Source: Methanomassiliicoccales archaeon (GTDB lineage: Archaea; Thermoplasmatota; Thermoplasmata; SG8-5). Taken from it: a stretch of DNA of 51,370 bases. Under the pieces are notes generated by a model that was not told the origin of the DNA, did no database searches, and worked only from the letters and a program-made list of their open reading frames with translations. Below, piece by piece: positions 2 to 48,022 of this stretch. Where the stretch lies: contig JAUWNU010000003.1 of the NCBI GenBank assembly GCA_030612505.1, positions 1 through 51,370 on the forward strand. Direction: 5' to 3'. The first letter of the stretch is position 1. The number at the start of each line of letters is the position of its first letter. A program made the translations under genes and the position numbers.

Positions 2-3842
<3,841 letters not shown>

Positions 3843-3856
3843 GCAAAAGAAAATAA

Positions 3857-3893: not shown

Positions 3894-3920
3894 AATAATC
3901 TTGTTAATTGTATTTGTCTT

Positions 3921-3971
3921 ATTTCGAGAACTGTACAACAAATCCTTATATACATTTCGAGAAGTGTACAA
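3921..3971. promoter_or_regulatory. Direct repeat ATTTCGAGAA(C/G)TGTACAA, two copies 33 bp apart; putative operator
   Basis: Copies at 3921 and 3954 are 17/18 identical and lie ~100-150 bp upstream of the 1899-aa gene. Confidence 0.45.
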
Positions 3972-4072
3972 ATCTTTACTTATAACCTCTTTTATATTTA
4001 GTTCAATTAGCAGAGAACTTTCCCTTGTTATAAAAATGAGGAGGCAGTGGGTGCGGAAGCTTCTCTGTTGAG

Positions 4073-7000
4073 GTGAAGATGATGGATAGGAATCAAGGGA
4101 AGAAAATCTTTGAAATGAAAAGTGTGATATGGATTGTCGCAGGAATGCTGATTATTTTACCCTTTTTTGGAATTATTGGAGCTAATGAGATAGGTCAATC
4201 AACTGTCAATACTATGCCTATAATAGATGTCACAAAGACAGCTCCTGCAACTGCCAACCCCGGCGAGACCATAACCTATACTATTAATTATCAAAATATA
4301 GGGAATGACACTGCGTTTAATGTGACTGTAAATGAATTTTATCCATCTGATATCACATTCGTGGATGCAAATCCTGTCCCTGATGTGGGAATTGATACCT
4401 GGTTCATCGGAACATTGGCATCTGGCGAGTGGGGGGTTATATACATCAATGTCACGATTAACGTAAATGCCATTGGCGTATTGAACAATACGGTCTCTGT
4501 TGATTACACCAACGATACAATGACTCCCTTTGGTCCCGAATACCATAGCGCATTCACGACTATTATAGAATCAGAAATAACTCTCAATGTTACAGTGAAT
4601 AATCCAAATCCGAACCAGGGAGATACAATCACAAAAACGATCACATACGAAAACGTCGGAACAGACATAGCAGACAATGTGGTGATAACAGAAACATACC
4701 CGCCGAATCTGACCTTTATCGGCGCAGTTCCCCCTCCGAGTGCGGGTAATAATGTCTGGATAATTAGCTCTATAGCTCCTGGCGGTAGCGGAATGATTCA
4801 AATCACACTTCAGGTAGGCATGGCTATTCCAAACGGTACTGTACTCACCAACTATGTGACATGCGATTATGACCCCGGTGCCAAGCAGAGCAATGACTCG
4901 GTGGAGATAATTGTTGGAAATGCGACTGGCTCAGTCCACAATATCGACACCGGCGAATACTTCTCCACAATTCAGGAGGCTATTGATGATGCAGACACTC
5001 TGAATGGGCATACAATTGAGGTTGATGCTGGAACTTATTATGAAAACGTGTTTGTGAATAAATCACTGACACTAATTGGTGAAAATAGGGATACGACGAT
5101 TATTGATGGTGGAGGGAGTGGTGATACAATTAATATCACTACGGATTGGGTAAATGTGAGCAGATTTACAATAATTGGTAGTGGCCCTCTTTCATTTGAT
5201 ACCTTCGACTCAGGTCTAGAATCAAAAGGGAACTATACTAGCATATCTGATTGTAAGTTCTCTGAGAACGCTATTGGGATACATTTTACTACCTCTAATC
5301 ATTCGGATGTTGCCAACTGCGAATTATCCCCCGATCATTCAACAGCAATCCGTTTAAATTCCAGTTCTAATATCCTCATAGTAAATTGTAATATTTCTGA
5401 CAACTGGTATGGGGTGGTCTTGGACAATACAAACGCTAGCACAATTGAGAAATGCACCTTACTAAATAACACATATAGTATCTACTTCAAATTTTCGAAT
5501 TACAATACTATCTCCGATTGTCGCCTTCTGGATCAGACTTATGGACTTTATTTTATTTTTTCATCGGGTAATAATATAGTTACTATATGCAACATTTCTG
5601 ATTCTGAGAGGGCTGTGAGCTTTGAGGTAGATAGTTATCAAAACCTCATCTTGAACTCTAGCATCTCAAATGCTTCTTTATATGATTTTCGCATCGGGAC
5701 CGGAGGAGTACTTTTATTGAATACGACATTTAACTCTTCAAAAGTACAAATAACTTCATTATATTCAAATTTGACAGTTCAGTGGTATTTACACATATAT
5801 GTAAACGATTCCTTTGACACTTTAGTTTCTGGGGGCCAGGTAGAGGTGGAGGATATAAATGAAAACCAAGTATTCACAGGAGTAACGGACATATCTGGAT
5901 ACTGTCGTTGGGTAATCTGTACTGAATATACCCAGAATTCTACTACTAAGAAATACTACACCCCTCACAAAGCTCATGTATGGAACACTACGCACCAGGG
6001 ATATGCCTATCCAAACATGGATATTTCAAAGAGGGTCACAGTTACTATCACTCCTTTACCAAAACCCGTCCGTAACATTGACACAGACGAATACTTCAAT
6101 GAAATCCAGGAAGCCATTGATGATTCTGATACTTTGAATGGCCACACAATCGAGGTCAGTGCCGGAACCTATAGTGAGAATGTTTTTGTGAATAAACAGC
6201 TGACTCTTGTTGGTGAAGACAGAAATACAACAACCATAGACGGTGGCGGAGTCGGTGATGTTGTACATGTCTTTGTGGATGGAGTAATTATTTCCGGTTT
6301 TACTATAACAAACAGTGGAAACCCAGGAGATTCAGGCATTTATGTTAACCAAGCTAGTAATTGTCAGTTTTTATACAACAATTTGTGGGACAATTATTAC
6401 GGAATATTAATCGAGTACTGCTCAAATAATACAGTATCTTATTCTAATTTCATTTCAAACGAACACGGCCTAAAATTTGTTGGCACTGTTATGGGCGGCA
6501 TACCTAAATTCAACACAATATCACACAATATATTTGAGAACATTGGCTATGGCTTGTGGTTGTCCCCCTCACAAAACAGTACAATAATTAATAACACCTG
6601 TACCGGCAATAATGTGGGCGTACTATTTCAGGCAGGGTCTAATTACAACACATTTTCAAATAACATTATCTCCTCAAATAGCCAGAATGGTATTTATTTG
6701 GGAGGAGACGCCAATAATACATTTACTAACAATAACATTTCATATAACAACATAGGCGTTAACTTGGAGAACCTGTTTTCAATGTGTAATACTTTTTATC
6801 ACAATAATTTCATAGGCAACACTGTTCACGCACTGGACAATACCGTAAATTATTGGGATAATGGCTACCCCTCTGGCGGAAATTACTGGAGTGATTACAC
6901 TGGCTCGGATGTTTATTCTGGCCCCGGACAGGATATTCCGGGCAGCGATGGCATAGGTGACACGCCTTATCTCGGAATAACTGGTGTTGCAGGAAACCTG

Positions 7001-10856: not shown

Positions 10857-10920
10857 GTGCTTTTTCTTTGAGGCTCAGAACTGCGCTGGCTTACCCTCCG
10901 CAATCGTTTATTTTACGCAA

Positions 10921-11125
10921 GTGTGATTGCGGGCCTATGATATTCTACTAGCATATTGCTTTCAGTCATACCAGGTAGGGTTCTACATTAGTTTTTATTT
11001 AGACATCGAACCCAACAATTGTTTTCAGGTTGTTTCGAGCAGTATGGCATTAGATTTAAGTTGAATATGTTGCCATGCCATTGTCGAATTCTCTGTTTGG
11101 ACTATTATGTAAGGCGAATTCAACT
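10921..11125. repeat. Dispersed non-coding repeat, copy A (partner at 36706-36910)
   Basis: Manual alignment gives ~138/180 identities with one gap; shared core AGCAGTATGGCATTRGATTTAA...ATATGTTGCCATGCCATTGTCGAAT. Confidence 0.85.
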
Positions 11126-29285: not shown

Positions 29286-29969
29286 AGCCCTAATTCCGCG
29301 ACCTTTAGGTCTGCGGATACAGGGCTTTGAGCATCTGTCCAGGCACAACACTTATTGTTTTGAAATAAAATAAAGGGTTGGCGGCGCGCCCCGCTGGAGC
29401 GGGGTGCATTAGGAACCGCCAGGAGTCAATATAGATGAAATCTGAGTGGTCATATAGCCATGGCTTTGGACAAAGCTAGTATCATGTGGTGCTTGTTCCC
29501 TACAAGCGATTTAAGATGTTTGGTAGGGCAGACATAAGAATGCAGTTGAACCGTATATTCTTTGTGATTGCGGAGCGGCATAATTTTGAATTGAAAGCGG
29601 TGGAAATAATGGAAAATCATGTTCATTTGTTCATCAACATCCGCCCTTCCCAGTCTATTGCAAAGGTTATGCAATATCTGAAGGGCGGCAGTTCTTATGA
29701 GCTTCGAAAGATTTTCCCTATACTGGATGCCTATCACAGATGCCGCTTATGGTCGAAAGGCAAGTTTTTTCGCCAGATTGGAGAAGTTAACGAGGAAACA
29801 ATCAAACATTATATTGATGATTCACAATCGAAGCACCACAAAGAAATCAGGATGCTAGGTGCATGGCTCCTGAGAGATTCGGAGTCCAAAAGAACTCCTC
29901 AAACTACACTGCTTTCCTTCACCAGTTAACTGTAGGGATACCCCGCCCTTTAGGGTGGGGAGCCCTCAT
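29286..29969 (+). mobile_element. IS200-type element (tnpA only) with subterminal hairpins
   Basis: Left hairpin AGCCCT..TCCGC-GACC-TTTA-GGTC..GCGGA..AGGGCT (29286-29326); right hairpin CCCCGCCC-TTTA-GGGTGGGG (29941-29960) followed by TCAT; no TIRs or TSD seen. Confidence 0.85.
29435..29929 (+). pseudogene. tnpA: Y1 HUH transposase with in-frame TAG at codon 15
   Basis: ATG 29435 gives MKSEWSYSHGFGQS*YHVVLVPYKR; HUH ENHVHL, LKGGSS, LWSKG, catalytic Tyr in IKHYI; TAG at 29477-29479. Confidence 0.82.
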
Positions 29970-34970: not shown

Positions 34971-35723
34971 TCAGAACCACACTGGCTTACCTGCCGCATC
35001 CCTCTTCCACTTGCCGAAATCCTCAATTTCCGCAAGCTGCTGGCCGCTGAAAACCGGACCGTCCTTGCACACAGTATATTTTCCGCACTGGCATGAGCCG
35101 CAGATACCGAAACCGCATTTCATGTACCGCTCCAGGGAGCATTGAATTGAAATATCTCCAGCAAGTCCAACAACCGCAACCATCATTGGCTCCGGCCCGC
35201 AGGCCAGTATCATATCAGGCTTTTTCTCGGCAATGAGCTTTTCGACTACCTGGGTAACAAACCCATGATGGCCACTACTACCATCATCAGTTGCCACATG
35301 AACTTCTCCAAAAGCTTTCATCCGCTCCTGAAAGAGTAAATCAGAAGCAGTTCTCGCACCAATGGCTATCCGAAGATTTTTTCCTGACTGGCTGAGCTTT
35401 TCCGCCGCCTGAGCCAGTGCCGCAATTCCTGTTCCTCCACCTACCAGTAGAAAGTTATTCTCAGATAAATCAAAGCCGTTCCCATAGGGCCCTTTTATAC
35501 CTATCTGGCTGCCTATCTCAAGAGCATGAATGGCCTGGGTTGCCTCACCAACATTGTCCACAGTTATGCCATCAGAATAAGAAAGCGACATTGGAATCTC
35601 ATCAATTCCCGGAATCCAGACCATGATGAATTGGCCGGGTTTTGATTCCACAGGCAATTTAAATTTAATAGTTTTTATATTATTAGTTTCATTTATTACT
35701 TCGCTGACCTGGACAATTTGCAT
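34971..35723 (-). CDS. pyrK: Dihydroorotate dehydrogenase electron-transfer subunit
   Basis: PGQFIMVW, GPYGNGF, GGGTGIA, ACGPEPM, CGFGICGSC..VCKDGPVF. Confidence 0.93.
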   Translation of the reverse strand: MQIVQVSEVINETNNIKTIKFKLPVESKPGQFIMVWIPGIDEIPMSLSYSDGITVDNVGEATQAIHALEIGSQIGIKGPYGNGFDLSENNFLLVGGGTGIAALAQAAEKLSQSGKNLRIAIGARTASDLLFQERMKAFGEVHVATDDGSSGHHGFVTQVVEKLIAEKKPDMILACGPEPMMVAVVGLAGDISIQCSLERYMKCGFGICGSCQCGKYTVCKDGPVFSGQQLAEIEDFGKWKRDAAGKPVWF

Positions 35724-36640
35724 TAAATCCCCTTCCTGGCCATCCCGATAATCTCGTCTAATTTTGAGTAATTCTTTCGGTCCATGAACTCTGAAATTTC
35801 CTGATTTACCTTGCTGAAAACATCAATTCCCTGATAATGAACACCAGAGCCGATCTGAACCGCACTTGCGCCTGCCATGATGTACTCAAGCGCATCCATG
35901 CCAGTGTTTATTCCACCAACACCAATAACCGGAATCTCAACCGTGCCAGAGATCTCGTAAACTGCACGAACTCCGGCAGGCTTGATTGCAGGTCCGCTGA
36001 TTCCTCCAACTTTATTCTTCAGCACTGGCATACCAAGTTCCGGCTCGATCTTCATGGCCTTGATTGTGTTAATAGCAACCACGCCGTCGCCGCCGGCCTC
36101 CTGCACTGCCAGGGCTATCTGGCCAATGTCCGGAACCATTGGACTTAGCTTGGCAAAGACCGGTATTTTCACAGAATTCTTCACTTGACCAACAATCTCT
36201 CGAACTTTCTCAGGGTCCGAGCCCATGTCCAGGCCGTATTTATCAGCATGGGGGCAGCTTAAATTCAATTCCACAGCACTTGCGCCAAATTCTTCCATTT
36301 TTCCAGCCAGTATTGAAAATTTTTCTCCGGTATCAGCAAAAATGCTGCCTATTACAGGAGCATCGCCTTTCAGTGCAATTTTTAACTCGGTTTCAAAAGC
36401 ATCAATTCCCGGGTTTGGCAAACCCATGGCATTCAGCAACCCACCATCCAGTTCCAGTGCGCAGGGACTTCCATGCCCTTCTCTTGGCTCCATGCCAATT
36501 GACTTGGTAACAACGGCTCCTGCTCCGCCCTCATTAATAATTTTTAAAAGTGATTCTCCAGTTTGGCCAAGAATTCCCGAGGCCAGCATGGTGGGATTCT
36601 CCAACTTCAGCCCTGCAATTTCCGTCCTGATGTCTGCCAT
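35723..36640 (-). CDS. pyrD: Dihydroorotate dehydrogenase, family 1B catalytic subunit
   Basis: LENPTMLASG, VTKS, NAMGLPNPG, ELNLSCPH, KLSP, GGISGPAIKP, GVGGI; start taken at ATG 36640. Confidence 0.95.
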   Translation of the reverse strand: MADIRTEIAGLKLENPTMLASGILGQTGESLLKIINEGGAGAVVTKSIGMEPREGHGSPCALELDGGLLNAMGLPNPGIDAFETELKIALKGDAPVIGSIFADTGEKFSILAGKMEEFGASAVELNLSCPHADKYGLDMGSDPEKVREIVGQVKNSVKIPVFAKLSPMVPDIGQIALAVQEAGGDGVVAINTIKAMKIEPELGMPVLKNKVGGISGPAIKPAGVRAVYEISGTVEIPVIGVGGINTGMDALEYIMAGASAVQIGSGVHYQGIDVFSKVNQEISEFMDRKNYSKLDEIIGMARKGI

Positions 36641-36705
36641 CAGGTGATGTGGAGATTGTGGAGGCCTAATAAATGTTTCCATCCGCAATAGTTTCTTTCA
36701 CTCGT

Positions 36706-36910
36706 GTGTTATTGCGGGCTTTTTGATATTATGCCTGTGAGTTGTTTTAAGCCATATCAAGTCGGATTCTACATTAACTTTGATTTAATTTTTGAATCCA
36801 ACAATCGCTTTCAGATTAATGTAAGCAGTATGGCATTGGATTTAAATTAGATATGTTGCCATGCCATTGTCGAATGCTCTGTTTAAATAAGTTTTGAGTT
36901 GCATTCAACT
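36706..36910. repeat. Dispersed non-coding repeat, copy B (partner at 10921-11125)
   Basis: Same orientation as copy A; ~77% identical over 180 bp by manual alignment; both end in ATTCAACT. Confidence 0.85.
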
Positions 36911-37184
36911 ATTTATGGGACTTGACCTCAACAAATTCATTCAAAAACACCCCTACTTCCTGGGTATCCGGGGCACAGATACCAACTATATCGCGAGTAA
37001 TTTTCTCACCAGTTTAGAGGGAGAAATTTACATTAATCCTCAGAGTCCTGGCTAACACTATCTAATCAGCTTACATTCAACAGTCAAATTAACTAATCAA
37101 CTAAACGAAAGCTTCAAGATGTCAGTTCTGCGTTGGAAATTCGGTCAGCAGAATTGCTCTTGATGGTTTGCCCAATAAAAAGCA

Positions 37185-40100
37185 TTAATCTTCTAAGAAA
37201 GAAGTTCCACAGTGAGAACATTCTTCAGCATCTGCAGCAACAAAATTACCACAATCTTCACAATAGGTATCACACTCAGGGCACCTATACATTCCATTGA
37301 AGATTTCATACATGTGGCCACATAATTTACAATGATTAATCTTAGGTATCTGTAATTGACCATTAGGTAATTTTTCAAGGCGATTTTTTTGTTGTAAAGT
37401 AGTAACAACACTGCCCACTCTCTTTCGAACCATTTCTCCAGTTCTGTTAAAACCAAATAATCTTGCTGTCTGAGCTATAATATCTTCTCTGGTTAGGCTG
37501 AAAGCATTCTCCACTACAAGACAAGCGGCCTCACCAATCTCTTCTTTTGCTATCAAATTTATTGTTCTGGGCTTATGCCCTGGTGCAGGAATTCTAACCT
37601 TTGGAGTGGTCATTGATGTTTTCCATACAAATTCGTCTTTTAAGGACAAATTATCCGAACAATTGATTCTGTAAATGATATTGTTTATAATTTTAGAACC
37701 GGCTTTATTCATACACCAGAATTGAGCGACCCTTCGAGAGGCCTCCCTTATGTGAATTGGGCCTTCAACTTGAACAACACGATATAATATATTACCCACC
37801 TGGTAGCTTCCATAAAATTCTTTTGGTTCACCAAATATTTGAACATTTGTTTTACTATAATATTTGACATTAGAAGGCAATTTAAAGTTATCATTTTCCT
37901 CATCAACTTCTTCGGATTCTTCAAAAGATTCATCTCGTTCTTCTTCAATTTCTGGCTCAATCTTCAAAGGTTGTTTTTTTTTGACTGGAGTGGTAAGAGC
38001 TTTCTTAATCTTTTCAATCTCCCCTTTGGGATTGTCAATCCAGTCTCTAGACCATATTCTGTGGATTCTCCATCCGAGGTTTTCAAGAACTTGTTGTCTC
38101 AATCTATCCCTGTCTCGAGCAGTCTTACCTGAATGATAACTGGCTCCGTCACATTCTATTCCCAGTAGATACAGACCAGGCTTATCAGAGTCAACTATAG
38201 CTAAATCTATTTTATAGCCTGAGCAACCAACTTGCTTCTGCACTTTGAAACCTTCAGCAACAAGGGCATTCCACACTTCTTCTTCAAATGGAGAATCAAA
38301 GTCACTTTCAATTTCTTCTGCACTGTGGGCAAACATTGCTGAAGGTCCATCTTGAGCATATTCCATGTAGTTTTTGAGGAGTTTAACACCTCTGCTCTGT
38401 GTCTTAGAAACATCCATATCATAAGGTAAAATTGATGATACCAATTTAACATGCGATCGAGCTCTTGTGATGGCCACATTCAATCTTCGTTCTCCACCCT
38501 TCTGATTCAGTGGGCCAAAACTCATGGACATTCTTCCCAGAGCGTCTTTGCCATACCCAACACTGAAGAACATAACTTCACGCTCATCGCCTTGTACATT
38601 CTCCAGGTTTCGCACGAAGAAGTTTTCCTCTAAATCCTCATTGAAGAAGGGTTCAAGTGAGGTGTCCTCTCGCCTCTTCCGCTCCAACTCATCGTTGATA
38701 GCCAGCATTTGTGCTTCACTGAAGGCAACCACACCAAGGGTTTTATCTGGGTGTGTTCTGAAATGTTCAAACACTAAGTCTGCAACCTTTCTTGCCTCAT
38801 CAACATTCCTTCGGCTTTTTCCCCTGTCATAGACCCCTCCTTCAACATATACATGCTCTACTCCAGCGTAGTCGTCTTTTGCTGTAATACTTGGGAATGT
38901 GTTGAGTCTGTTCATATAGAAATTAAAATTGGAAAATGCAATTAGATTTTCATGCTTACTTCTATAGTGCCACATCAACAGTTTAGACGGGAGCCCAATG
39001 CTATCACACTCATCCAGTATGCTCTCAAATTCATCCATTTCTTCATAGGACTCATCATCAAAGTCATCAACTCCCGATGAAACAAAGAACTTGGTTGGTG
39101 GAAGCTGCTTATTATCTCCAACAACAATAACTTCACGTCCGCGCATAATTGCACCTATGGCATCTTCAGGGCATATCTGTGAGGCTTCATCAAACACAAC
39201 TACATCAAATTTATAGATATCTGGGTCAATGAACTGGCTCACAGACAAAGGACTCATAAGTATACAAGGTTTGATTGTTAGCAATAAGTTTGATATCTCG
39301 GAAAATAAAACTCTAATTGGCTTATGTCTCCTCTTCTTATTTGCTTCTCTTTTTATTATGCTTTGTTCTGAACTTGGAGCATCAACCCATTGGTTGTGTG
39401 GTTTTTTATTAGCAAGTTTCAAGACTAATCTCTTCTCTGAAATATTAATGAGTTCGGTATCTAACTTGACAAAACGTTCAATATATGCTTCATGTTGTTT
39501 GCTACTGAAGTTGATTAGAACTTCATCTTCGGAATAAACATAATCTATCCAATGCCGGTAAAATCCTTTATAAAATGCACTTTTCAGACTCTTAGAATCT
39601 AATTCTTTTTCAAATGAATTATCTATGAAATCTTGTAGTTTATGGATCTTAAATTTCTTAATAATTCCATAATACGAAATCCAATCTTTTAGTTGTTGAA
39701 TGTTCTCAATCTTCTGCTCTATCCATTGATATAACTTTAGATACTCACATTTATTAAAAGGGACTTCAGAAAACAAGTCTGGCTCCTCATCAAAGTAGCT
39801 CATGATTTTATCATGTCTTTGAGCAAGTCCTTTGTTGATATATTCTCTTATCTTATCTGGTTTCATGCCGGACAATTTGGATCTTGTTTCAATATCATTT
39901 GAGGCAATTTTAACAACCTTATCTGGAACCGTATTATTTGAGAAGATATTCTGCAATTTGCTTGTCCATTCGAGGGCATTGGATATTTGAGACCAATCTG
40001 TTTTCTCTCCAATATAATAATGTCTAAACGTTTTCTTGAAATTTATTTCATGGCCTTCTAATTGTCTCTTTAACTTCGTTACATCAATCATCTTTTTTAG

Positions 40101-42032
40101 GTCTTTAAGTGCATCATTGTATTTCAATTTTGAATTTTTGGAGTATTGGGACAACTTGTTCATATCCTGTTTATAACTCCCCTTAAATATCCTGAAAAAT
40201 GAAGTGTAGTCATTGAGGAATCGAGAGTATAGGGATTGGATATCTAAGCTGAAAATCTCTTTATCATACCTATTAGAAATAGCATTTATTTCCGTTAAGT
40301 ATTTTGAGGTTATGCTTTCCCCTTCCAAAGCCAAATCTCCAATTTCTGTGAGGTCTGAATCATTTATCCAGGCCTCTGGTGGAGATGGAGACACGGTCAA
40401 ATGTTCAGCGCATTTACAGAGCCATTCAGCGACACCCACATTTTTTGGAGGGGAGTATGACAAAATACTTGCTAAGTTATTTCCTCTTTGTTGAACATTG
40501 GTTATTGTATTTTTATATGATTCAAAATCCTCTTGAACTGTATTTTGAACTTCAAAAGAATATTGCCCTATATTACATCCTTTCCAAGGATGGCTTAAAT
40601 GATTATCATAAATATGACCCATAGAGGTAAGGCGATCCAGTAGTGTATCATACTCTTCAAAAGACTGGTCATTCACATCAGAGATATTTGGAACCTTGAA
40701 TCGTAAATCTGGGGCGTCATCTAACGCCGCGAGTTCTCCATGCACTTGGTAAGCAGAGAGATTCAACTTAGTTCTTTTCTTATGTAGTGCCATCACATAG
40801 CTGTTCAACCGTCCCCTTAATTTTTGTAATTCGTTGAGCTTTTGAAGTTGTTTACTATTAACTTTCGGCCTATTATTTTCGGCATCAAGTGTGTTTCCAA
40901 GTTCTGTAATTACTTGTTTTTTATTGGCTTTGTGACTGTGCAACTCAAGGCAGAACTCACCTAAGCTATGTTGATCCAGTCTCTTTTTGACAACTTCTAA
41001 TGCAGCCATTTTCTCACTAACAAAAAGAACTGTTTTATCTGCTTCTAAACATTCTGCAATAATATTGGCTATGGTTTGACTTTTTCCTGTTCCAGGAGGC
41101 CCTTGAATTATGAAGCTAACTCCCCTCTTTGCAGCTATAATAGCTTCCTGTTGGCTTGAATCCGCATCTAATATCTGAAATGTTTCTTCGGGTTTGATTT
41201 CATAATCTAACTTCTCTGCAGTTGGCAAATCTCTTGGCACTTTAGGCAGCTTAGAGCTGTCCCCTGCCAGAGCACAAACAATAGGATGATCACCGAGGAC
41301 TTTGCTGTAAGTTTCAAGGTCTTTGAACATTATAAATTTCTTAAATGAAAATAGGCCTAGATGAACTTCATTTGTAATATTCCAGCCAGGAAGTTTGTTA
41401 ATTTTAGTCTCTATTTTTCTATATTCAGTACTCAAATCAAAATCATCTAAATCTGGCAATTCTTGGAATGTCAGGTTAAAATCATTTAATAATTTTTGAA
41501 GAAGTGTTGGATTAAATATTATTTCTTCTTCTAATAACTTAATCTTAAATGGTTCGGTAATTGATTCCCTTTTTATTTTAACAGGCGCAAGGAACAGTGG
41601 TGATCTAATAATCTTATCACTTGCATCAGCCTCTGTCCAGTTAAGCATGCCAAAAGCCACATAAAGTATGTTAACCCCTTGTTCTAAAAAGGCAGTATTA
41701 GATCTGAGCCGGATTGTATTCAAAATTCTATTCTGGTCTCCCTCATTCTTAGCTGTAATCAAATCTTTTTGATTGAGTTTATAATTGCCAAATGAAATTT
41801 CAGATAATGACATCTCTTGAATGTCATTGAAAATTCTTCCTTGCCACTTAAAAATCATCTCACGACCTTTCTTTACTAAAGTGTCGAAAGCATCCTCTGG
41901 CTGAGGATATAAAATATTGACTGAACCGGTTTTAGTTTCCCGGAAGTTAAGAAGCCTATTTCTTTTGCTGAGGTCAATTAGGTTAGCCTTCCATTGTTCA
42001 ATTTTTTGATTCAATTCTGGGTTACTGGTCAT
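37185..42032 (-). CDS. DUF4011 + SF1 (UPF1/DNA2-like) helicase + Vsr-like/MTES_1575 nuclease + DUF3320-like domain + double Zn ribbon (Hhe-like defence protein)
   Basis: W..NLIDLSKRNRLLNF, DADSSQQEAI, QGPPGTGKSQTI, MSPLSV, FDEASQ, GDNKQLPP, HYRS, ENVQGDER, RRLNVAITRAR, DSPFEEEV..GIECDG..YHS..ARDRDRLRQ..GWRIHRIWS. Confidence 0.9.
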   Translation of the reverse strand: MTSNPELNQKIEQWKANLIDLSKRNRLLNFRETKTGSVNILYPQPEDAFDTLVKKGREMIFKWQGRIFNDIQEMSLSEISFGNYKLNQKDLITAKNEGDQNRILNTIRLRSNTAFLEQGVNILYVAFGMLNWTEADASDKIIRSPLFLAPVKIKRESITEPFKIKLLEEEIIFNPTLLQKLLNDFNLTFQELPDLDDFDLSTEYRKIETKINKLPGWNITNEVHLGLFSFKKFIMFKDLETYSKVLGDHPIVCALAGDSSKLPKVPRDLPTAEKLDYEIKPEETFQILDADSSQQEAIIAAKRGVSFIIQGPPGTGKSQTIANIIAECLEADKTVLFVSEKMAALEVVKKRLDQHSLGEFCLELHSHKANKKQVITELGNTLDAENNRPKVNSKQLQKLNELQKLRGRLNSYVMALHKKRTKLNLSAYQVHGELAALDDAPDLRFKVPNISDVNDQSFEEYDTLLDRLTSMGHIYDNHLSHPWKGCNIGQYSFEVQNTVQEDFESYKNTITNVQQRGNNLASILSYSPPKNVGVAEWLCKCAEHLTVSPSPPEAWINDSDLTEIGDLALEGESITSKYLTEINAISNRYDKEIFSLDIQSLYSRFLNDYTSFFRIFKGSYKQDMNKLSQYSKNSKLKYNDALKDLKKMIDVTKLKRQLEGHEINFKKTFRHYYIGEKTDWSQISNALEWTSKLQNIFSNNTVPDKVVKIASNDIETRSKLSGMKPDKIREYINKGLAQRHDKIMSYFDEEPDLFSEVPFNKCEYLKLYQWIEQKIENIQQLKDWISYYGIIKKFKIHKLQDFIDNSFEKELDSKSLKSAFYKGFYRHWIDYVYSEDEVLINFSSKQHEAYIERFVKLDTELINISEKRLVLKLANKKPHNQWVDAPSSEQSIIKREANKKRRHKPIRVLFSEISNLLLTIKPCILMSPLSVSQFIDPDIYKFDVVVFDEASQICPEDAIGAIMRGREVIVVGDNKQLPPTKFFVSSGVDDFDDESYEEMDEFESILDECDSIGLPSKLLMWHYRSKHENLIAFSNFNFYMNRLNTFPSITAKDDYAGVEHVYVEGGVYDRGKSRRNVDEARKVADLVFEHFRTHPDKTLGVVAFSEAQMLAINDELERKRREDTSLEPFFNEDLEENFFVRNLENVQGDEREVMFFSVGYGKDALGRMSMSFGPLNQKGGERRLNVAITRARSHVKLVSSILPYDMDVSKTQSRGVKLLKNYMEYAQDGPSAMFAHSAEEIESDFDSPFEEEVWNALVAEGFKVQKQVGCSGYKIDLAIVDSDKPGLYLLGIECDGASYHSGKTARDRDRLRQQVLENLGWRIHRIWSRDWIDNPKGEIEKIKKALTTPVKKKQPLKIEPEIEEERDESFEESEEVDEENDNFKLPSNVKYYSKTNVQIFGEPKEFYGSYQVGNILYRVVQVEGPIHIREASRRVAQFWCMNKAGSKIINNIIYRINCSDNLSLKDEFVWKTSMTTPKVRIPAPGHKPRTINLIAKEEIGEAACLVVENAFSLTREDIIAQTARLFGFNRTGEMVRKRVGSVVTTLQQKNRLEKLPNGQLQIPKINHCKLCGHMYEIFNGMYRCPECDTYCEDCGNFVAADAEECSHCGTSFLED

Positions 42033-42098
42033 ATTGTGCCTCTTCCTACTGGGTAAGAGAGTTGTGATTTAACTTCTTTTCCTATTCCTACTTTAGTC

Positions 42099-42578
42099 TC
42101 AAAGTTCTAATGTCATAACAAAACCTTGCCGCATTTCTGGATGTCCTCTAAAATGCTCGTCTATTCTTGTTTCACATTTCTTTAGCTGTAATATATGTTC
42201 AATGTATAGCAATAAATCGTATCCCTCTTCATCATATGCCTTGAGTTCATCTTTGAATGCTCGATATTCTTTTTTATTGAACTTATGGTGCTGGAGTGAT
42301 TGGAGAAAATTATCAAGTTCATTAATCAGATAACGGTAATGGGAAATTAAGGCCTGGGCACTTGCTTGAACCTCAGGTTCGTCTGTAATTGAATCTAAAT
42401 ACCCAATCCAATTTTGAATTACATTCTTGTATAATTCAAATTCTACTAAAGCGACAGGGCCACCCATTACACTATGCTCTGGGCAAATCTGGGTTAAGTT
42501 GTTTGTATCCCTATCTACTCTTGCTAACATCCTATCAACATAATCGTATAATTTGTCTGAAATTTCATCTTCAGTCAT
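42099..42578 (-). CDS. Hypothetical helical protein (159 aa)
   Basis: ATG ORF, co-oriented 66 bp upstream of the helicase; no recognised motif. Confidence 0.6.
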   Translation of the reverse strand: MTEDEISDKLYDYVDRMLARVDRDTNNLTQICPEHSVMGGPVALVEFELYKNVIQNWIGYLDSITDEPEVQASAQALISHYRYLINELDNFLQSLQHHKFNKKEYRAFKDELKAYDEEGYDLLLYIEHILQLKKCETRIDEHFRGHPEMRQGFVMTLEL

Positions 42579-42722
42579 ATTCTCACAACCTGCTCTATTA
42601 GAAGCTCTAATACAATAAATTGATTTCCTAGGTGAACATCATTTAAAAAGAGGAACGATTTATCCGCAACCGAGATTGCTAATTTTTTCTGAACTAAGAA
42701 TGAGTCAGTGGGTTCTATTTTA

Positions 42723-42837
42723 AATCGGGAGGGCTGACACCCGGAAGCCCGAACGATATCACTCTAAGAGTGAGACGTGGTCGTAGGACCTGGCCACGAG
42801 TGGAGTGCCCGGCAATCTCACTGCTCGGGACGCCTGG
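42723..42837. repeat. Structured intergenic repeat, copy 1 of 3
   Basis: AATCGGGAGGGCTGACACCCGGAAGCCCGAACGATATCACTCTAAGAGTGAGACGTGGTCGTAGGACCTGGCCACG... Confidence 0.9.
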
Positions 42838-42839
42838 AA

Positions 42840-43268
42840 TTATCCAAATATGCCAATGCCTAATGTTAAAAGAACTGAGATTATTGCAATATAAAGTGCT
42901 AAAATTGCTAACATGTATGAATATTTTCGGTCAAGTACCGCACCAAGTTCAAACCAAGCATTCTGTAATTTCATTATTGCAGAACTACCTTTAGCAGTTG
43001 ACCAAGATTGGAAGAAGCCCATTGAGATACCCGGGCCACTAACTGGCTCAATAAGAAGTGAGTAGCAATCCTCAATTTTTTTCTCATATATTAATTGCAG
43101 TTTTTTCTTCTGGGTATTAATTCTCTGTAATTTTACAACATTCAAAGGATTTAGAAAATTAATTGAATCCACTTTGCGATACAATTTTCGTATTGAATTA
43201 TATACTGGCTCTATAGTTTTTTCGATATTTAATGTAGGTATTAGAATAGTTCCCATATTTTTAACCAT
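42840..43268 (-). CDS. Hypothetical protein (142 aa) with a C-terminal TM helix
   Basis: ATG 43268 preceded by AGGAG; hydrophobic tail YMLAILALYIAIISVLLTLGIGIFG; low GC; lies between repeat copies 1 and 2. Confidence 0.65.
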   Translation of the reverse strand: MVKNMGTILIPTLNIEKTIEPVYNSIRKLYRKVDSINFLNPLNVVKLQRINTQKKKLQLIYEKKIEDCYSLLIEPVSGPGISMGFFQSWSTAKGSSAIMKLQNAWFELGAVLDRKYSYMLAILALYIAIISVLLTLGIGIFG

Positions 43269-43371
43269 ATAATTTTCTCCTAACTGGCACATCTCCTTCC
43301 CTGCGTAGAACTCCGCTCGCCCAAGTGAATGCCCAAAAGCGGATAAAAGCCTTTCTACGGCTCCAGTATTC

Positions 43372-43485
43372 AATCGGGAGGGCTGACACCCGGAAGCCCG
43401 AACGATATCACTATAAGAGTGAGATGCGGTCGAAGACCTGGCCATGACTAACATGCCAGTTCTGTTTTCATCATCTTGCCACCGG
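43372..43485. repeat. Structured intergenic repeat, copy 2 of 3
   Basis: First 41 bp identical to copy 1; right part CCAGTTCTnnTTTCATCATCTTG shared with copy 3. Confidence 0.9.
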
Positions 43486-43520
43486 AACAGACGATTTTAA
43501 ATTGTAGCCTATATTCTGCC

Positions 43521-43554
43521 AATCCCTCAATCTAAAATCCCTCAATCTAAAATC
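43521..43554. repeat. 15-bp tandem duplication AATCCCTCAATCTAA x2 (+AATC)
   Basis: Exact copies at 43521 and 43536, abutting the stop codon of the AlbA_2 gene. Confidence 0.85.
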
Positions 43555-44983
43555 ACTCATCCGCCGCCTCCAGAAACTTCCTTCCCTTTTCGGTGAGAAT
43601 GTATCGGCCAGTCTTTGGTGCGCCTTCGAACAGTATAAGTTCGGCTTCCTTCAAGAGTGCTATGTCTCTTTCTGCCGTTGCCGTGGAGATTCCGAAGGTC
43701 TTCTCCATCATATTGCGGGTGATGGACTTCTCCCGGTATATTGTTACCAACTCTCTGGCCAACCTTTGTTTTACGCCCTCATTTACTCCCTCACGTACCC
43801 CCTCATTTACTCCCTCATATGCTATGGCCAGCATCTTCCTGATTTGTGGGGTGACTTGCGGGGTGACTTCCTCGATTTCCTCTCTGTGGAATACCACCAG
43901 AAACCCAGTCTTGAGTTTCTTGAATTCGACTCGCACACCCTCGGACTCGCATTCATCGTATATTCTCTTGAGGCCGGACCCCCATCTCTCGATGTCTTTG
44001 CTCAGAAACAGGGTGCTGGCAAGCAGGGGATTTCTTAGAATGGAGCGTTCCTCGCCCTTTATGAAGTCCTCCGGTTCGAACTCGTCCGGGAACTGGCCTG
44101 GATTGTAGATTTCTATACGATCCTTGAAAATCGCAATTTCATTTCCCTTGGGATTAACATAATCCCTGTGGCAGAGCGAGTTTACAATAGCTTCCCTGAG
44201 TGCTTTCACCGGAATTTCGGGTATTTCCTCGCGCTCAAGTTTTCCGAATTTAACACTCCATTTCATATGATTCTTGACATAAAGCTCGGATTCCTTCAAA
44301 ACATGAAAGAGATCTCCTTTCAGTTGGTTAATGTCAAGGAAAGTCAGCTTGTCGGTTCCGGCAAATATTGCGGTCTGGACCTCAAGCTGGTTATTATCAC
44401 AGAAAAGAACCTCCGCGGCTCTGGACAGTTTTCCGTCAAAGAGAAGGCCTAATTTATTCAAGGTCGGAACCAGACCCAGGTACTCGAAATCTATCCTGCC
44501 AGCTTCGTTTGCCTTTTTTGTGAAATCTATCAGCAGTTCCTCGTTCACATCATTCGGTTCAGCATTGGATGGCTGGCTGTCCCAGGGGAATAATTTCTCG
44601 CCCTTCTTTAATATCTGTTTCTCTATTTGACCGGGACTCATCTGTCTGTCCTCGTCACCAACTCTCATGTATGCTTTTCCATAGGCATAATAAAGGTTTT
44701 CTGAACCCTCGAATTCGACAATTATGCAGTCATTACCCTCTAGTTGAACAGTCTCGACTCTGGGAAATATCATGGGTTTTATATGATTGGAAATTGCCTG
44801 GGATATGTCTCTGATGGTGTCCTGACCAATTTGCTGGCCTATAACCGTGCCGTTGTTCTTGATTCCGAAATACAACTGCCCCATTTTATGCTTGTTCAAT
44901 ATTGAAGCAATTGATATGATACCCTCCTTCAATTCGGAAGTGGATTTCTTCAATTCCAGGGTTTCGGATTCTTTAAATTTCAT
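43553..44983 (-). CDS. Schlafen/AlbA_2 domain + HATPase_c_4 ('RecG C-terminal') + winged-HTH protein
   Basis: ESETLELKKS..SILN..GQLYFGIKNNG, ALREAIVNSLCHRDY, DRIEIYNPG, RNPLLA, IERWGSG, C-terminal GISTATAERDI..L..EG..KTGRY. Confidence 0.88.
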   Translation of the reverse strand: MKFKESETLELKKSTSELKEGIISIASILNKHKMGQLYFGIKNNGTVIGQQIGQDTIRDISQAISNHIKPMIFPRVETVQLEGNDCIIVEFEGSENLYYAYGKAYMRVGDEDRQMSPGQIEKQILKKGEKLFPWDSQPSNAEPNDVNEELLIDFTKKANEAGRIDFEYLGLVPTLNKLGLLFDGKLSRAAEVLFCDNNQLEVQTAIFAGTDKLTFLDINQLKGDLFHVLKESELYVKNHMKWSVKFGKLEREEIPEIPVKALREAIVNSLCHRDYVNPKGNEIAIFKDRIEIYNPGQFPDEFEPEDFIKGEERSILRNPLLASTLFLSKDIERWGSGLKRIYDECESEGVRVEFKKLKTGFLVVFHREEIEEVTPQVTPQIRKMLAIAYEGVNEGVREGVNEGVKQRLARELVTIYREKSITRNMMEKTFGISTATAERDIALLKEAELILFEGAPKTGRYILTEKGRKFLEAADE

Positions 44984-45080
44984 GTCCAAACTCCTTCAAA
45001 TTTTCCTTAATCTGCTCTTCCAGTTTCCGGCTTTCCTCGAATTGCTTCGTGAGTTTCTTCATTTTTTGCCAAAATGTCAT
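44973..45080 (-). pseudogene. hsdM: C-terminal remnant of a type I R-M methyltransferase
   Basis: MTFWQKMKKLTKQFEESRKLEEQIKENLKEFGHEI* resembles the HsdM terminal helix (FEEKMxRLT..QFxESxxLExxIxxNLxxLGY); its stop overlaps the AlbA_2 start. Confidence 0.65.
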
Positions 45081-45149
45081 CCCCTGTGGAAGTTATCTAA
45101 GAGGGGAATACCATATGAGAATATTACCTTTGGGATACTAAAAAGTACT

Positions 45150-45255
45150 ATCGCAAGGGCCGCCGAAACAATCCCCGAACGATATCACTTTAAGAGTGAG
45201 ACGCGGTCATGGACCTGGCCATGGGCGCTATACCAGTTCTTATTTCATCATCTTG
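45150..45255. repeat. Structured intergenic repeat, copy 3 of 3 (diverged left arm)
   Basis: CCCGAACGATATCACTTTAAGAGTGAGACGCGGTCATGGACCTGGCCATG..CCAGTTCTTATTTCATCATCTTG; upstream ATCGnnAGGGC at the same spacing as in copies 1 and 2. Confidence 0.88.
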
Positions 45256-45324
45256 ACTCAACACCAATGATAACCTCATAAGAACATTTTTAACCCGCCC
45301 CCTCATCCACAAGCCAGGGAAATC

Positions 45325-46602
45325 ATGATAACCTTACTGACAATCATAATGCTGGCCTGCTTCATCGTAGCCCTGGGGCTGTTCATATTCATGATGCGGT
45401 TCGCTGTGAAGACCGAGGTTGTTGTCACCACTGCCTTGCTTACCTTGCTTGCGGCTGCTGGCTTATTCTCCTGGGCTATTCTTTCGGCTGCCGAAACTGC
45501 CCTTCCCCAGTGGTCGGATATTGCCTATCTTTGCGCGATTTTGATGTTTCCGCTTCTGATAATTCTGTTCATCCAGCGTTCCACCGCCCAGTCGCTTATT
45601 ATTACCAGCATGAAAGGCCGGATTATGGTATTTGGTCCCTTGCTTGGTCAGCTTGTCACCCACTTTTTGCTCCCTGAGGATGTCTCGAGATTTACTGACT
45701 TCATGTTCTTTATATTCTGGCTTGCACTTTCATTCATTGTCTGGAACATGCTTTTCAAGAGAATGCAGGAAACAGCCTCCGATATTAGAAAAAAACAATT
45801 GGAATTCATGCTGGCCTCATTTTTTGTGGTTATTTTATATAATATTCCCATTATATTTAGTTTATTTGTGCCAGACCTTGGAGAGTTCAGCATTTTCTTC
45901 AGCATGGGAATTGTTGTCTCGCTCCTGGTGACTGTTCGAGGTCTTGTTCAGTACCAGATGGTCATTGGTACAGAACTTCTGGTTCGGAATTCTCTTATTG
46001 TCTTATTGACATCCATAATCTGTGTTACTGGCTTCATCGTTACCCAGCTTGCGGTTCTATCCTCGGTTGGCAGTTTCGGCCCCAGTACCCAGATATTGAT
46101 TAGCACGGTGATGCTGATTGTTATTGTGCTGAGCATCAATCTTATTGGCAATATGGCAACCAACCTTGTTGAGCGTATTTCTCCCCAGCTCAAGTGGCAA
46201 GAGTCTAAAGTTCAAGAAATATTCATCCTTCACACAAACAGCCTGGTAATCGCCCATGCTGGCACCCATGAGGAAACTGGCATTGACAGGGATATGGTTG
46301 GGGGCATGCTTACTGCCATCCAGAACTTCGTCCAGGAAGCTTTTAATGCCTCTGAGATGGACAGTTTAAAGTCATTATCCATGGGAAATCTGAGGGTATT
46401 AATTGAGGCAAGGGGCTGTGTGGTTGTTGCTGTTCTGTTCACTGGTCACGAGGCCAGGGAGCTTCGCAAGGGTGTAATGCGGCTCATGGACGAGCTGGAT
46501 GAAAATTATGGGCCAGTGCTTCGTGAATGGCGAGGCGATAAACGCAGCGTCTTGGGTGTCCAGGAATGGCTTGAGGGCGTTCTTGAAAAAATGGCTAGTT
46601 AA
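45325..46602 (+). CDS. Polytopic membrane protein (~9 TM, HisKA_7TM-like sensor) fused to a C-terminal roadblock/longin-like domain
   Basis: Nine hydrophobic segments; IRKKQLEFM loop; C-terminal VQEIFILHTNSLVIAH..DMVGGMLTAIQNFVQEAF..LRVLIE..VVVAVL..WRGD. Confidence 0.7.
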   Translation: MITLLTIIMLACFIVALGLFIFMMRFAVKTEVVVTTALLTLLAAAGLFSWAILSAAETALPQWSDIAYLCAILMFPLLIILFIQRSTAQSLIITSMKGRIMVFGPLLGQLVTHFLLPEDVSRFTDFMFFIFWLALSFIVWNMLFKRMQETASDIRKKQLEFMLASFFVVILYNIPIIFSLFVPDLGEFSIFFSMGIVVSLLVTVRGLVQYQMVIGTELLVRNSLIVLLTSIICVTGFIVTQLAVLSSVGSFGPSTQILISTVMLIVIVLSINLIGNMATNLVERISPQLKWQESKVQEIFILHTNSLVIAHAGTHEETGIDRDMVGGMLTAIQNFVQEAFNASEMDSLKSLSMGNLRVLIEARGCVVVAVLFTGHEARELRKGVMRLMDELDENYGPVLREWRGDKRSVLGVQEWLEGVLEKMAS

Positions 46603-46800
46603 GGGTATGTGTATGGTTATCGTTAACAGAGGGTCTACACTTAATTACCGCTAATAAAGGGTCTATGTTTAGTTATCGTTAATGAGGGTCTTTGCTTAAT
46701 TATCGTTAGTGAGGGTCTATGTTTGGTTATTGTTACTGAGGGTCTGTGTTTGGTTATCGTTAGTGAGGGTCTGTGTTTGGTTATTGTTAGTAAGGGTCTA
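46601..46800 (+). repeat. Tandem array of ~7.3 units of 27-28 bp (consensus GAGGGTCTRTGTTTGGTTATYGTTAGT)
   Basis: Unit starts at 46601, 46629, 46657, 46684, 46711, 46738, 46765 and 46792. Confidence 0.93.
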
Positions 46801-46883
46801 GGGTTTTTTGACTGGATACCCTAGGCAATAAATGAGCTGGGTTTTGGTTCACTGGCCTCATTAATTTTCCCTAGGCCCTGAAC

Positions 46884-46991
46884 CCTTCTGCTATCAGATT
46901 GAGTCTGATAGCTGTAGACCCTGATTTTGATACTCCAGCCTCATTAATTTATCCTTCTGCTATCAGATTAGGTCTGATAGCGGTAGACCCT
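46884..46991. repeat. Duplicated 38-bp unit containing the hairpin GCTATCAGA-N5-TCTGATAGC followed by TAGACCC
   Basis: CCTTCTGCTATCAGATTGAGTCTGATAGCTGTAGACCC (46884) and CCTTCTGCTATCAGATTAGGTCTGATAGCGGTAGACCC (46953); GCCTCATTAATTT precedes both. Confidence 0.9.
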
Positions 46992-47059
46992 TTGTACATG
47001 AATATAAACATAGACCCTATCACTTTTGTATAGAAACTTAGACCCTAGCCCCTAGACCC
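46984..47059 (-). repeat. Inverted GGGTCTA boxes (TAGACCC on +) with the same 27-28-bp phasing
   Basis: TAGACCC at 46984, 47011 and 47039 (also 46915 and 47053); AAACATAGACCCT at 47006 is the exact reverse complement of AGGGTCTATGTTT in left-array units. Confidence 0.8.
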
Positions 47060-47131
47060 AAACATAATGTAAGCAATCTATGCTCCTCACCAAAAATGTA
47101 AATATACAATCACCAATCCTGCCACGATACC

Positions 47132-48022
47132 ATGGAAGAAGTGCTGAAGAAAGTTGTACTGCTGGGGGATTCGGCTGTTGGCAAGACCAGTCTAATGAAT
47201 CGTTTTATTAAGAATGCATTTGATGATAGCTATATCAGCACAGTAGGTGCCAAGGTTTCCAAGAAGGTTGTGAACGTTTCATTTGATAATGTGGATTATG
47301 CAGTTTCATTCATGCTCTGGGATATTATTGGTAGTGAAGGATATAAATCCACCCAGTCAAGGCATATTGCAGGTCTCAATGGCGCAATAATCGTTGCTGA
47401 CCTCTCCAGGCCCGAGACCATTCAAAAGTTGGAAGAATACTGGATCCCGCTTCTTAATGAAACAACTGCTGGAGTAATGCCGCCTATCCTGTTTGTTGGA
47501 AATAAACTGGACCTGGTTGATGCGGAAGCATCCTTCAAAGCATTAACAGAATTTACAGAGATGGACAGCAGAGTACGCCAGGAAGATATTGTTGATAAGT
47601 TCAAAGCTCTCCAACCCTATGTAGTGACAAGTGCCAAGACCGGCCATGGAGTTGAGGAAGGTTTCTCTACCCTTGGAACAATGATGGTCATGGAACATGA
47701 GAGTTATGAGCCAATGACCAGGCAGATGGATGAAATTGTGGCAGACTCAATTTATGAGACCGATGAAAGAAAAACTGCCAGGTCTGTATTAGACATGGTC
47801 ATTGCTGACTTTCCCTTTGTGGTTATGTCATCTGGCGTTTCCAGGGACATTCTCCAGGAATGCTTCGGCAAGTCAAATGTATCCAAGGACAAGCCAACTC
47901 CCAAGGGCATAAAAGAACTTATTGATACCTTGCTGGCAAGGGCATTGGAAGAAGGTGCCGATGAAGATATTGTGGAACAACATCGCAAAAAATGGCTGGA
48001 TAAACTGGGAAGGTTCGGGTAG
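47132..48022 (+). CDS. Rab/Ras-like small GTPase with ~100-aa C-terminal helical extension
   Basis: G1 GDSAVGKTS, G2 YISTVG, G3 LWDIIGS, G4 GNKLD, G5 TSAKTG; no C-terminal prenylation Cys. Confidence 0.9.
   Translation: MEEVLKKVVLLGDSAVGKTSLMNRFIKNAFDDSYISTVGAKVSKKVVNVSFDNVDYAVSFMLWDIIGSEGYKSTQSRHIAGLNGAIIVADLSRPETIQKLEEYWIPLLNETTAGVMPPILFVGNKLDLVDAEASFKALTEFTEMDSRVRQEDIVDKFKALQPYVVTSAKTGHGVEEGFSTLGTMMVMEHESYEPMTRQMDEIVADSIYETDERKTARSVLDMVIADFPFVVMSSGVSRDILQECFGKSNVSKDKPTPKGIKELIDTLLARALEEGADEDIVEQHRKKWLDKLGRFG

Follow-up and report, generated by a model that had tools for sequence, protein, structure and literature searches.

The stretch of DNA analyzed here, referred to as the window, comprises 51,370 nt of contig JAUWNU010000003.1 from a Methanomassiliicoccales archaeon, and it contains three copies of a non-coding element of ~95–120 nt, which we call element E. 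On balance, E appears to be a new, non-autonomous interspersed mosaic repeat, which is specific to the lineage of one Methanomassiliicoccales genus, and is located at junctions of separately acquired modules. By analogy, the build and behavior of E may be compared to those of the ERIC/IRU, BIME, and BOX elements.

Three copies of element E within one strain-specific insertion

The three direct repeats of ~110 bp that a preliminary description of the window had reported are real; the copies, named E1, E2, and E3, are co-oriented and located where that description had placed them. The core that it quoted, CCCGAACGATATCACTNTAAGAGTGAGA, has exact plus-strand matches at 42748, 43397, and 45174, which makes three in the window compared to none in 100 dinucleotide shuffles. 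A profile search bounded the copies at 42716–42837, 43366–43486, and 45142–45261, and a repeat search of the window returned a 67-nt family of three copies, two of them 93% and 72% identical to the reference, as well as an additional 82-nt pair with 83% identity. The orientation of E is given by convention, and not as a result, as that of the surrounding minus-strand genes. E1 (42716–42837, minus strand) is a type-I copy (nhmmer E-value 3.5e-30; covariance model score 94.6 bits, with the model core at 42719–42814), and its 5′ extension begins at the stop codon of the upstream gene. E2 (43366–43486, minus strand; nhmmer E-value 1.6e-32; model core at 43368–43462) is chimeric, and E3, which is a type-II copy (nhmmer E-value 4.1e-30; 80.7 bits; model core at 45145–45239), covers 45142–45265 on the minus strand when its 5′ extension is included. 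As it had also been described, a single minus-strand gene is located between successive copies, at 42840–43268 and at 43553–44983, and the GC contents of these genes are unequal, with 31.7% for the first, which encodes 142 aa, and 45.8% for the second, which encodes 476 aa, compared to 43.3% for the genome.

The window was compared with relatives of its own genome (G000, 2.25 Mb in 168 contigs, 85% complete), which included G001 and G002 from the same genus, and G003 from the same family; the three genus genomes are all incomplete metagenome-assembled genomes (MAGs), with completeness of 85%, 77%, and, for G002, 61%. The orthologues of pyrD and of the gene for a 425-aa membrane protein, which is located at 45325–46602 in the window, divergent from pyrD, and is conserved in relatives, are direct divergent neighbors in G001, where they are 100 nt apart, and in G003, where they are 46 nt apart. 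On the left, the last flank sequence homologous to G001 is ...AATGTTTCC, and on the right the homology starts again with AATGATAACC.... Therefore, a gene for a ProA-like helicase, three other genes, and all three copies of E constitute one strain-specific insertion of 8.6 kb (36681–45265, edges ± ~10 nt), which separates the core promoter of pyrD from that of the 425-aa protein gene. At the right edge of this insertion, where the 5′ extension of E3 stops, 60 nt remain to the start of the 425-aa gene. At the left edge there is a different dispersed repeat of ~230 nt (36676–36915), which has blastn matches at 10891–11098 of the window and on more than 25 other G000 contigs, with 69%–84% identity, and the depth was raised over 36703–37103 in the contigs of run X1.

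The presence of E also differed between G000 and G001 at other sites. On contig C36, E together with a 25-nt module, M2 (TGTCCATKAAAAGGGGTTCACTCCA), forms a clean insertion of ~176 nt at the KaiC stop codon, where G001 holds 6 nt. On C94, a segment of 2.25 kb, which consists in order of a 61-aa open reading frame (ORF) ending inside E, E itself, M2, and a 472-aa gene, is in place of 40 nt in G001. On C110, the homology to G001 stops ~60 nt before E, which occupies the alaS-side edge of a divergent segment of 2.1 kb, where G001 has 4.1 kb of other DNA. There are also places in G001 where E with an 891-aa gene, and E with three genes, occupy sites at which G000 has other DNA, and on C108 and C150 the element is located inside G000 regions without a G001 counterpart. 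No recognizable E was found in the other genome at the compared sites, which were the window, C36, C94, C110, the G001 loci, C108, and C150.

Two details of the C94 segment were additionally observed. The 61-aa ORF (3820–4005, MTSSELMEEL...) replaces the 5′ half of E with its own end, and the 472-aa gene (4189–5607) is composed of about seven repeats of ~60 aa with a W..KENRI.A..WL motif, and has no family match.

The copies of E have a mosaic build, with two types of the 5′ part, one in E1 and the C110 copy and the other in E2 and E3, and two types of the 3′ part, in which the loops of the 3′ hairpin differ. The 5′ part of E2 is identical to E3 at 45 of 60 positions, compared to 38 of 57 for E1, while its 3′ part is identical to E1 at 26 of 28 positions, compared to 18 of 26 for E3, and is also similar to the C110 copy. 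E1 itself is 90% identical to the C110 copy across 103 nt. The chimeric composition of E2 and the match of E1 to a copy on another contig indicate that the copies exchanged sequence, which would fit both homologous and site-specific recombination. The DNA on the 3′ side of E is modular as well. M2 follows E at four loci, being located 3′ of E on C94, C108, and C36, and twice on C167, which accounts for five of the six matches of M2 in the genome, and a second 3′ module (TACTTTTTAGTATC..AAAGGT) is common to E3 and the best G001 copy. The clustering of three of the nine genomic copies inside 2.5 kb occurred in 601 of 2,000,000 random placements; hence, it is not due to chance and a local process has acted. 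Paralogues of E at non-orthologous sites of the two species are 81%–87% identical, and orthologous genes are 75%–83% identical at the DNA level.

In the mechanism that we propose, copies of E would reach new intergenic sites either alone, as on C36, or together with accessory DNA, and would mostly be retained within strain-specific segments or at their edges. Their spread would depend on a function supplied in trans. The 8.6-kb island would then be a composite of at least three modules of different origin, consisting of E3 with a Schlafen-like gene, E2 with the 142-aa gene, and E1 with a 159-aa gene and the ProA-like helicase gene. The window copies would mark the junctions of these modules, and recombination of the copies with each other would have produced the chimera in E2. 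The census of the family, its intergenic scatter, the presence and absence of E at orthologous sites, the insertion of the island, the chimeric E2, and the lack of known signatures are shown by the data, and we infer the mobility as such, the trans-acting enzyme, and a role of E as a portable point of homology or joining.

Census, neighbors, and structure of the family

Nine copies of E were found by nhmmer at seven loci of G000, which were the window, with three copies, and C110, C150, C94, C108, C36, and C167/C17. The copy at the end of C167 and that at the start of C17 were counted as one, because the two contigs share an overlap of 141 identical bases. With a covariance model that was built from 13 copies, 10 raw hits were obtained in G000, two of which were this single C167/C17 copy, along with four copies in G001. 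The same model did not detect E in G002 or in 10 genomes from two other genera of the family, so that 2 of 13 family genomes were matched. In the BLASTN comparison across 61 relatives, G000 and G001 were the only genomes with matches above 45 nt, and four other genomes had matches of only 24–29 nt. A scan of 185,579 species genomes with a degenerate pattern, to which every known copy conforms, returned only four loci of one MAG, the scores and coordinates of which are those of the G001 hits, and which were counted once. The scan of metagenome contigs returned five loci; three of them are true members of the family (50–62 bits, E ≤ 1e-9), all from one metagenome, and two weak, GC-rich, partial hits were dropped from the census. 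An origin from phages or plasmids was rejected, as the pattern scan of viral contigs returned 0 matches and no blastn match to E was obtained in phage and plasmid collections. In total, E is known from 16 copies at 14 loci of one narrow lineage, and only one of these loci, the window, holds more than one copy. Full-text literature searches on Methanomassiliicoccales repeats and archaeal MITEs (miniature inverted-repeat transposable elements), judged from listings and abstracts, returned no such element for this order.

Each of the 16 copies is intergenic or extends by a few bases into the end of an ORF. The annotation of the neighbors, which was based on Pfam and PADLOC, showed alaS and a PDC-S01-like AAA_14/DUF4143 gene at C110, eIF6, ribosomal protein genes, and the gene of the 472-aa repeat protein at C94, KaiC and DUF835 genes at C36, a NosD-like surface protein at C167/C17, a CARDB protein at C108, and ArsR and an Avs4-like NACHT protein at C150. 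The neighbors are thus housekeeping, surface, and defense genes alike, and E is not specific to the window locus or to defense genes. The upstream gene is known for 15 copies; 11 of them are co-oriented with it and start 0–230 nt past its stop codon, while four face away from it (one-sided p = 0.059). The downstream gene is co-oriented for 10 copies, convergent for five, and could not be assigned for one. Where a gene follows E, its start codon is 140–160 nt away, with AT-rich, promoter-like DNA in between. No conserved AT-rich box was present at a fixed distance upstream of the 16 copies, several of which have coding or GC-rich DNA directly upstream. This spacing to the start codon and the lack of a promoter at a fixed distance argue against E being either a leader RNA of the downstream gene or a self-contained RNA gene. 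The preliminary description had offered a structured leader RNA or operator heading each defense gene as one of its two readings, which is not supported for the further reason that E is also located between convergent 3′ ends, as between the KaiC and DUF835 genes on C36, is present divergently upstream of alaS, and adjoins ribosomal, eIF6, and surface-protein genes.

The alignment of the 16 copies showed a variable 5′ half, which contains two covarying hairpins, and a conserved 3′ half. The conserved 3′ core of ~50 nt (CYCRCTCTTA..TGAY(0–2 nt)TCG.YNGRGC..GCCCTCYCGAT) ends in a GC hairpin, and what is best conserved in E is its sequence and not its structure. Insertions and deletions of 1–2 nt within this core rule out that E is a coding sequence. 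The stems named in the preliminary description do exist. Helix 1 (GGCATG..CATGGCC), which corresponds to its CTGG..CCAG stem with differing inner pairs, has two-sided changes in five of six pairs among the 16 copies, and helix 2 (GGTC..GACC), with loops GTAG, GAA, and ATG in the window copies, has them in three of four pairs. In helix 3 (CACTC..GAGTG), described before as TCACT..AGTGA, the inner three pairs are unpaired in six or seven of the 16 copies, and there is one double change at one pair. Helix 4 (ATCG..CGAT) is paired in 100% of alignment cells and almost invariant, and helix 5 (GGGCY..RGCCC) contains one covarying pair, which is U-A in eight copies and C-G in five. In E1, helices 1, 2, and 3 are located at 42809–42792, 42790–42779, and 42772–42760, respectively, and the 3′ hairpin formed by helices 4 and 5 at 42757–42724. 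Two further features that had been pointed out, a pseudoknot-like CGGG/CCCG pairing and the long stem that closes the first copy, are confined to the type-I copies (E1, E2, and C110) and are not kept across the family, as the loop sequences differ in the alignment.

Helices 1, 2, 4, and 5 are kept in 74%–100% of cells, and the overall pairing amounts to 81.6% of cells, compared to 29%–47% when the 3′ partners were slid. The covariation score of 0.230 exceeded the value of 0.137 for shuffles, and was reached by 0 of 500 shuffles, although related sequences can beat shuffles without any structure and 16 members give little power. Single-sequence folds on the gene strand were unremarkable, with z-scores of −1.45 for E1, −0.58 for E2, and +0.16 for E3. 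The evidence on the functional strand is mixed, as G-U pairs are present on the E strand in helices 1–4, while one pair of helix 5 is A-C in five of 16 copies and would be G-U on the opposite strand. The GC content of E is 50%–60%, compared to 33%–39% in the AT-rich spacers, and several copies are followed by T-runs.

Comparison with known systems and alternative explanations

Several known classes of sequence were considered and rejected. ARAGORN found no tRNA or tmRNA in the window, which speaks against a tRNA or tmRNA fragment serving as an integration-site repeat. There was no Rfam 15 hit at gathering score over the window, and none at E ≤ 1 over 42600–45400, which speaks against a known RNA family or ribozyme; the surroundings of the C110 copy gave only two chance-level Rfam hits (E ~7), both outside E. 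The ATGATGA sequence in the 5′ extension of E2 and E3 is not accompanied by a D box at the right place, as it would be in a C/D-box small RNA. A MITE of the type with terminal inverted repeats was rejected, as no such repeats are present in the 16 copies, and so was an end of an insertion sequence (IS) of the IS200/605 group, as E has no similarity to the flanks of the three Y1 transposase genes in the genome.

The enterobacterial ERIC/IRU and related intergenic repeat units of 100–170 bp, BIME/REP mosaics, and the pneumococcal BOX elements are small, non-coding, extragenic mosaics of short imperfect palindromes, the modules of which are put together in different combinations, and which are restricted to particular lineages, vary in presence and absence between close relatives, and do not encode an enzyme of their own. 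E is similar to them in being ~100–180 nt long, non-coding, extragenic, modular, composed of palindromic units, narrow in range, and variable in presence. It differs from them in having only nine copies per genome, in its archaeal host, in its strongly conserved, non-palindromic 3′ core, in its preferential location at the edges of, or within, strain-specific segments, and in that no RAYT-like partner was identified. With MITEs such as the Correia elements and the Sulfolobus SM MITEs, it shares its size, multiple copies, non-coding nature, solo insertion (C36), and lineage restriction, but it has neither terminal inverted repeats (16 of 16 copies) nor a clear target-site duplication, and there is no parent IS with matching ends in the genome; nhmmer and the covariance model found only short copies over the whole genome, and no autonomous parent element with E ends. 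With IS200/IS605 PATEs and REP/RAYT elements, E shares a hairpin-based build, the lack of inverted terminal repeats, and the lack of an obvious target duplication. The three Y1 (IS200-like) transposase genes of G000 lack mutual similarity at the DNA level. One of them is located in the window (29486–29929), where it stands alone inside a sugar-biosynthesis cluster.

The similarity to integron attC sites and CALIN arrays is confined to the window, where folded, co-oriented repeats alternate with single co-oriented genes, one repeat is located directly behind a stop codon, and one is a hybrid. The other reading of the preliminary description was that the repeats are recombination sites of a cassette-type system, such that a remote recombinase would cross over in the conserved core and gene-plus-E modules would be stacked like cassettes bounded by attC. 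We consider this explanation quite improbable, although part of the observations agrees with it. The three co-oriented copies are exactly at the junctions of three modules of unequal GC content within one clean insertion, E2 combines an E3-type 5′ half with an E1-type 3′ half as a core crossover would yield, E1 abuts the upstream stop codon in the way attC does, and E borders strain-specific DNA at several other loci. The solo copy on C36 could be an empty cassette, the hairpin stems covary, and there are four PF00589 tyrosine-recombinase hits in the genome (on C29, C14, C117, and C150), the last of them 8 kb from the C150 copy. None of these hits adjoins E, however, and, as described before, the Pfam scan detected no integrase among the 37 window ORFs of at least 70 aa. 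Likewise, the RYYYAAC/GTTRRRY boxes, which correspond to the R″/R′ boxes of attC, are absent from all three window copies, in agreement with the preliminary description; the nearest strings, GCCCGAAC and GTTCGGG, fit neither consensus. The sequence of E is conserved and not only its structure, unlike in attC, and E is present as a single copy at 13 of 14 loci, one of which is the solo insertion of ~176 nt. The sites of relatives without the insertion hold no E, each downstream gene retains 140–160 nt of its own upstream DNA, and no cargo gene recurs in different E contexts among the neighbors of the 14 loci. The insertion edge is found at variable distances from E (~15–35 nt), and ordinary homologous recombination would yield the chimera as well. 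Joints between E copies, as expected from circles or deletions, were not present over 35500–47500 in the contigs of three runs of one study, although contigs drop rare variants and one of these runs may be the source of the window. As to the outcomes by which the preliminary description proposed to judge this reading, E does not correspond to the end of a known IS or MITE, the content of its flanks varies, and the covariation is modest, which decides in neither direction. A related and very doubtful proposal is that E represents the joining sites of an undescribed Methanomassiliicoccales cassette-stacking system without an integron integrase, in which the crossover in the 3′ core would be made by a remote recombinase, or by an HUH enzyme that acts on the single strand in its folded form, and separately acquired defense and accessory modules would thereby be strung together at permissive intergenic sites, with E2 as the footprint of one such event.

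An action of E at the RNA or transcription level is also unlikely. E could be a structured 3′ untranslated region, or a terminator or insulator like REP, BIME, and ERIC, which is selected where foreign genes are located behind a resident gene, or it could be a small RNA. This is consistent with the 11 of 15 copies that follow a co-oriented gene within 230 nt of its stop codon, the GC-rich composition of E in AT-rich spacers, the covariation of helices 1, 2, and 5, the T-runs, and a conservation between species that is at least equal to that of coding DNA. On the other hand, the orientation bias is weak, with four copies facing away, helix 3 is often unpaired at its inner positions, the G-U and A-C pairs give mixed evidence on the strand, the folds of E2 and E3 are no better than shuffles, and there is neither an Rfam match, even at E ≤ 1, nor a promoter at a fixed upstream distance. 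Moreover, such a role would by itself leave the presence and absence of E among relatives unexplained. There is also little probability that the window copies are a local by-product, that is, one E duplicated by unequal recombination inside the island without any role in building it. Unequal crossing-over or gene conversion would fit the tight clustering, the co-orientation, and the chimeric E2, but the DNA between the copies is not duplicated, and the intervening genes are unrelated and differ by 14 GC points. In addition, E1 is closer to the C110 copy (90% over 103 nt) than to E3 (72% over 67 nt), and the module on the 3′ flank of E3 recurs at a G001 copy.

The interpretation of E as a mobile mosaic repeat is itself opposed by several observations. 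For a mobile repeat, E has few copies. None of the copies has a transposase or recombinase gene beside it, and in particular E does not adjoin any of the three Y1 genes or resemble their flanks, which sets it apart from PATEs and REP/RAYT elements. Among 88 ORFs around the 14 loci there is no shared neighbor protein beyond surface-protein repeats and KaiC paralogues. The comparison of the 5′ end with the reverse-complemented 3′ end revealed terminal inverted repeats in none of the 16 copies, but only chance-level matches of 6–33 nt at differing positions. The flanks of the C36 insertion are ~20% different from G001, and at most a 2-nt AG could be duplicated there, without a clear target duplication. 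Where it is readable, the insertion edge is ~15, 30, or 35 nt from helix 1; therefore, E is near the edge, but it is not the precise terminus of the inserted element. In G001, the site corresponding to C167/C17 may retain a degenerate piece of the 5′ half of E, which would mean that this copy is old and vertically inherited. The conservation across species together with the covarying stems could indicate a cellular function, and the genomes compared are incomplete MAGs throughout.

Genes of the insertion and other repeat families

The gene at 37185–42032 on the minus strand encodes a 1615-aa helicase-nuclease, which is similar to the anti-phage proteins ProA, PDC-S37, and Hhe, and which contains the Pfam domains DUF4011, AAA_11, AAA_12, and MTES_1575. 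The protein scored 1573 bits against PADLOC PDC-S37 over residues 5–1560, and 1461 bits against NCBIfam ProA, which is below the cut-off of 1500. The GC content of this gene is 36.7%, and its orthologue was absent from four of four relatives searched. Just past its 3′ end, a 69-nt non-coding stretch (36930–36998) is 97% identical to C150:26350–26418, which is located inside another G000-specific defense region that also holds a copy of E. The 159-aa gene (42099–42578, minus strand, GC 35.2%) is 141 nt downstream of E1; it had no Pfam match above cut-off and no PADLOC or NCBIfam match, and its best atlas score was 0.78. The 142-aa gene (42840–43268, minus strand), which encodes a C-terminal hydrophobic helix, had no Pfam, PADLOC, or NCBIfam match either, and its atlas look-alikes, at a score of 0.95, were bacterial hypothetical proteins of 131–143 aa. 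A listed 204-aa ORF reaching 43454 is probably a spurious extension of this gene that reads through E2.

The 476-aa protein (43553–44983, minus strand) contains Schlafen AlbA_2 and HATPase_c_4 domains, as assigned by Pfam, and a C-terminal end resembling a winged helix–turn–helix (HTH), and had weak PADLOC matches to pAgo-associated models (2e-14). Inside its gene, a 12-nt tandem repeat (43772–43817) encodes a repeated EGVNEGV-type peptide before the C-terminal HTH-like end, and a 35-aa ORF (MTFWQKMKKLTKQFEESRKLEEQIKENLKEFGHEI; 44973–45080, minus strand), the reality of which is uncertain and which has no family match, overlaps the start of the gene. The designation of this region as a defense island in the preliminary description is correct only in part; it fits the 1615-aa neighbor, and for the two genes between the copies of E the PADLOC hits were weak or none.

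Other repeat families were observed as well. A 27-nt tandem array, with a unit of ~AGGGTCTATGTTTAGTTATCGTTAATG, is located in the window at 46594–46805 and 46884–47050, flanked by 39-nt palindromic units. This family had blastn matches on more than 50 G000 contigs, and the depth of the run contigs there reached 184–476. On C110, a similar 27-nt-type array is located ~230 nt from E on its 3′ side, and another one fills the C105 site where G001 has E and a gene. A third family consists of GC-rich, two-part hairpin elements of ~170 nt, built on ATGCCCCGYCYGTGAGGGCGGGG ... AGGTGGTCGCCACCGGCA, which are present on C7, C12, C16, C31, C37, C55, C109, C113, C134, and many other contigs of G000, and one of which adjoins E on C108 (30818–30770, minus strand). 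A regular-expression search for it gave 86 hits, which were mostly the element, with some false positives in coding sequences. Three of four sampled loci of this family had sub-threshold Rfam matches to HgcC (25.9, 17.3, and 16.9 bits, with a gathering score of 50), and an element of the same type is also present at the eIF6 site in G003.

To our knowledge, much work has been devoted to the small interspersed repeats of bacteria, and very little to those of archaea other than Sulfolobus and haloarchaea. At least four unrelated structured intergenic repeat families are present in the genome described here, and among them it is E that most often marks the places at which the conserved backbone adjoins strain-specific genes, some of them anti-phage genes. 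If E helps in the joining of DNA at these places, it would provide a handle on the assembly of archaeal defense islands; as a mere passenger, it would still be useful for marking recently acquired DNA in these uncultured relatives of methanogens.

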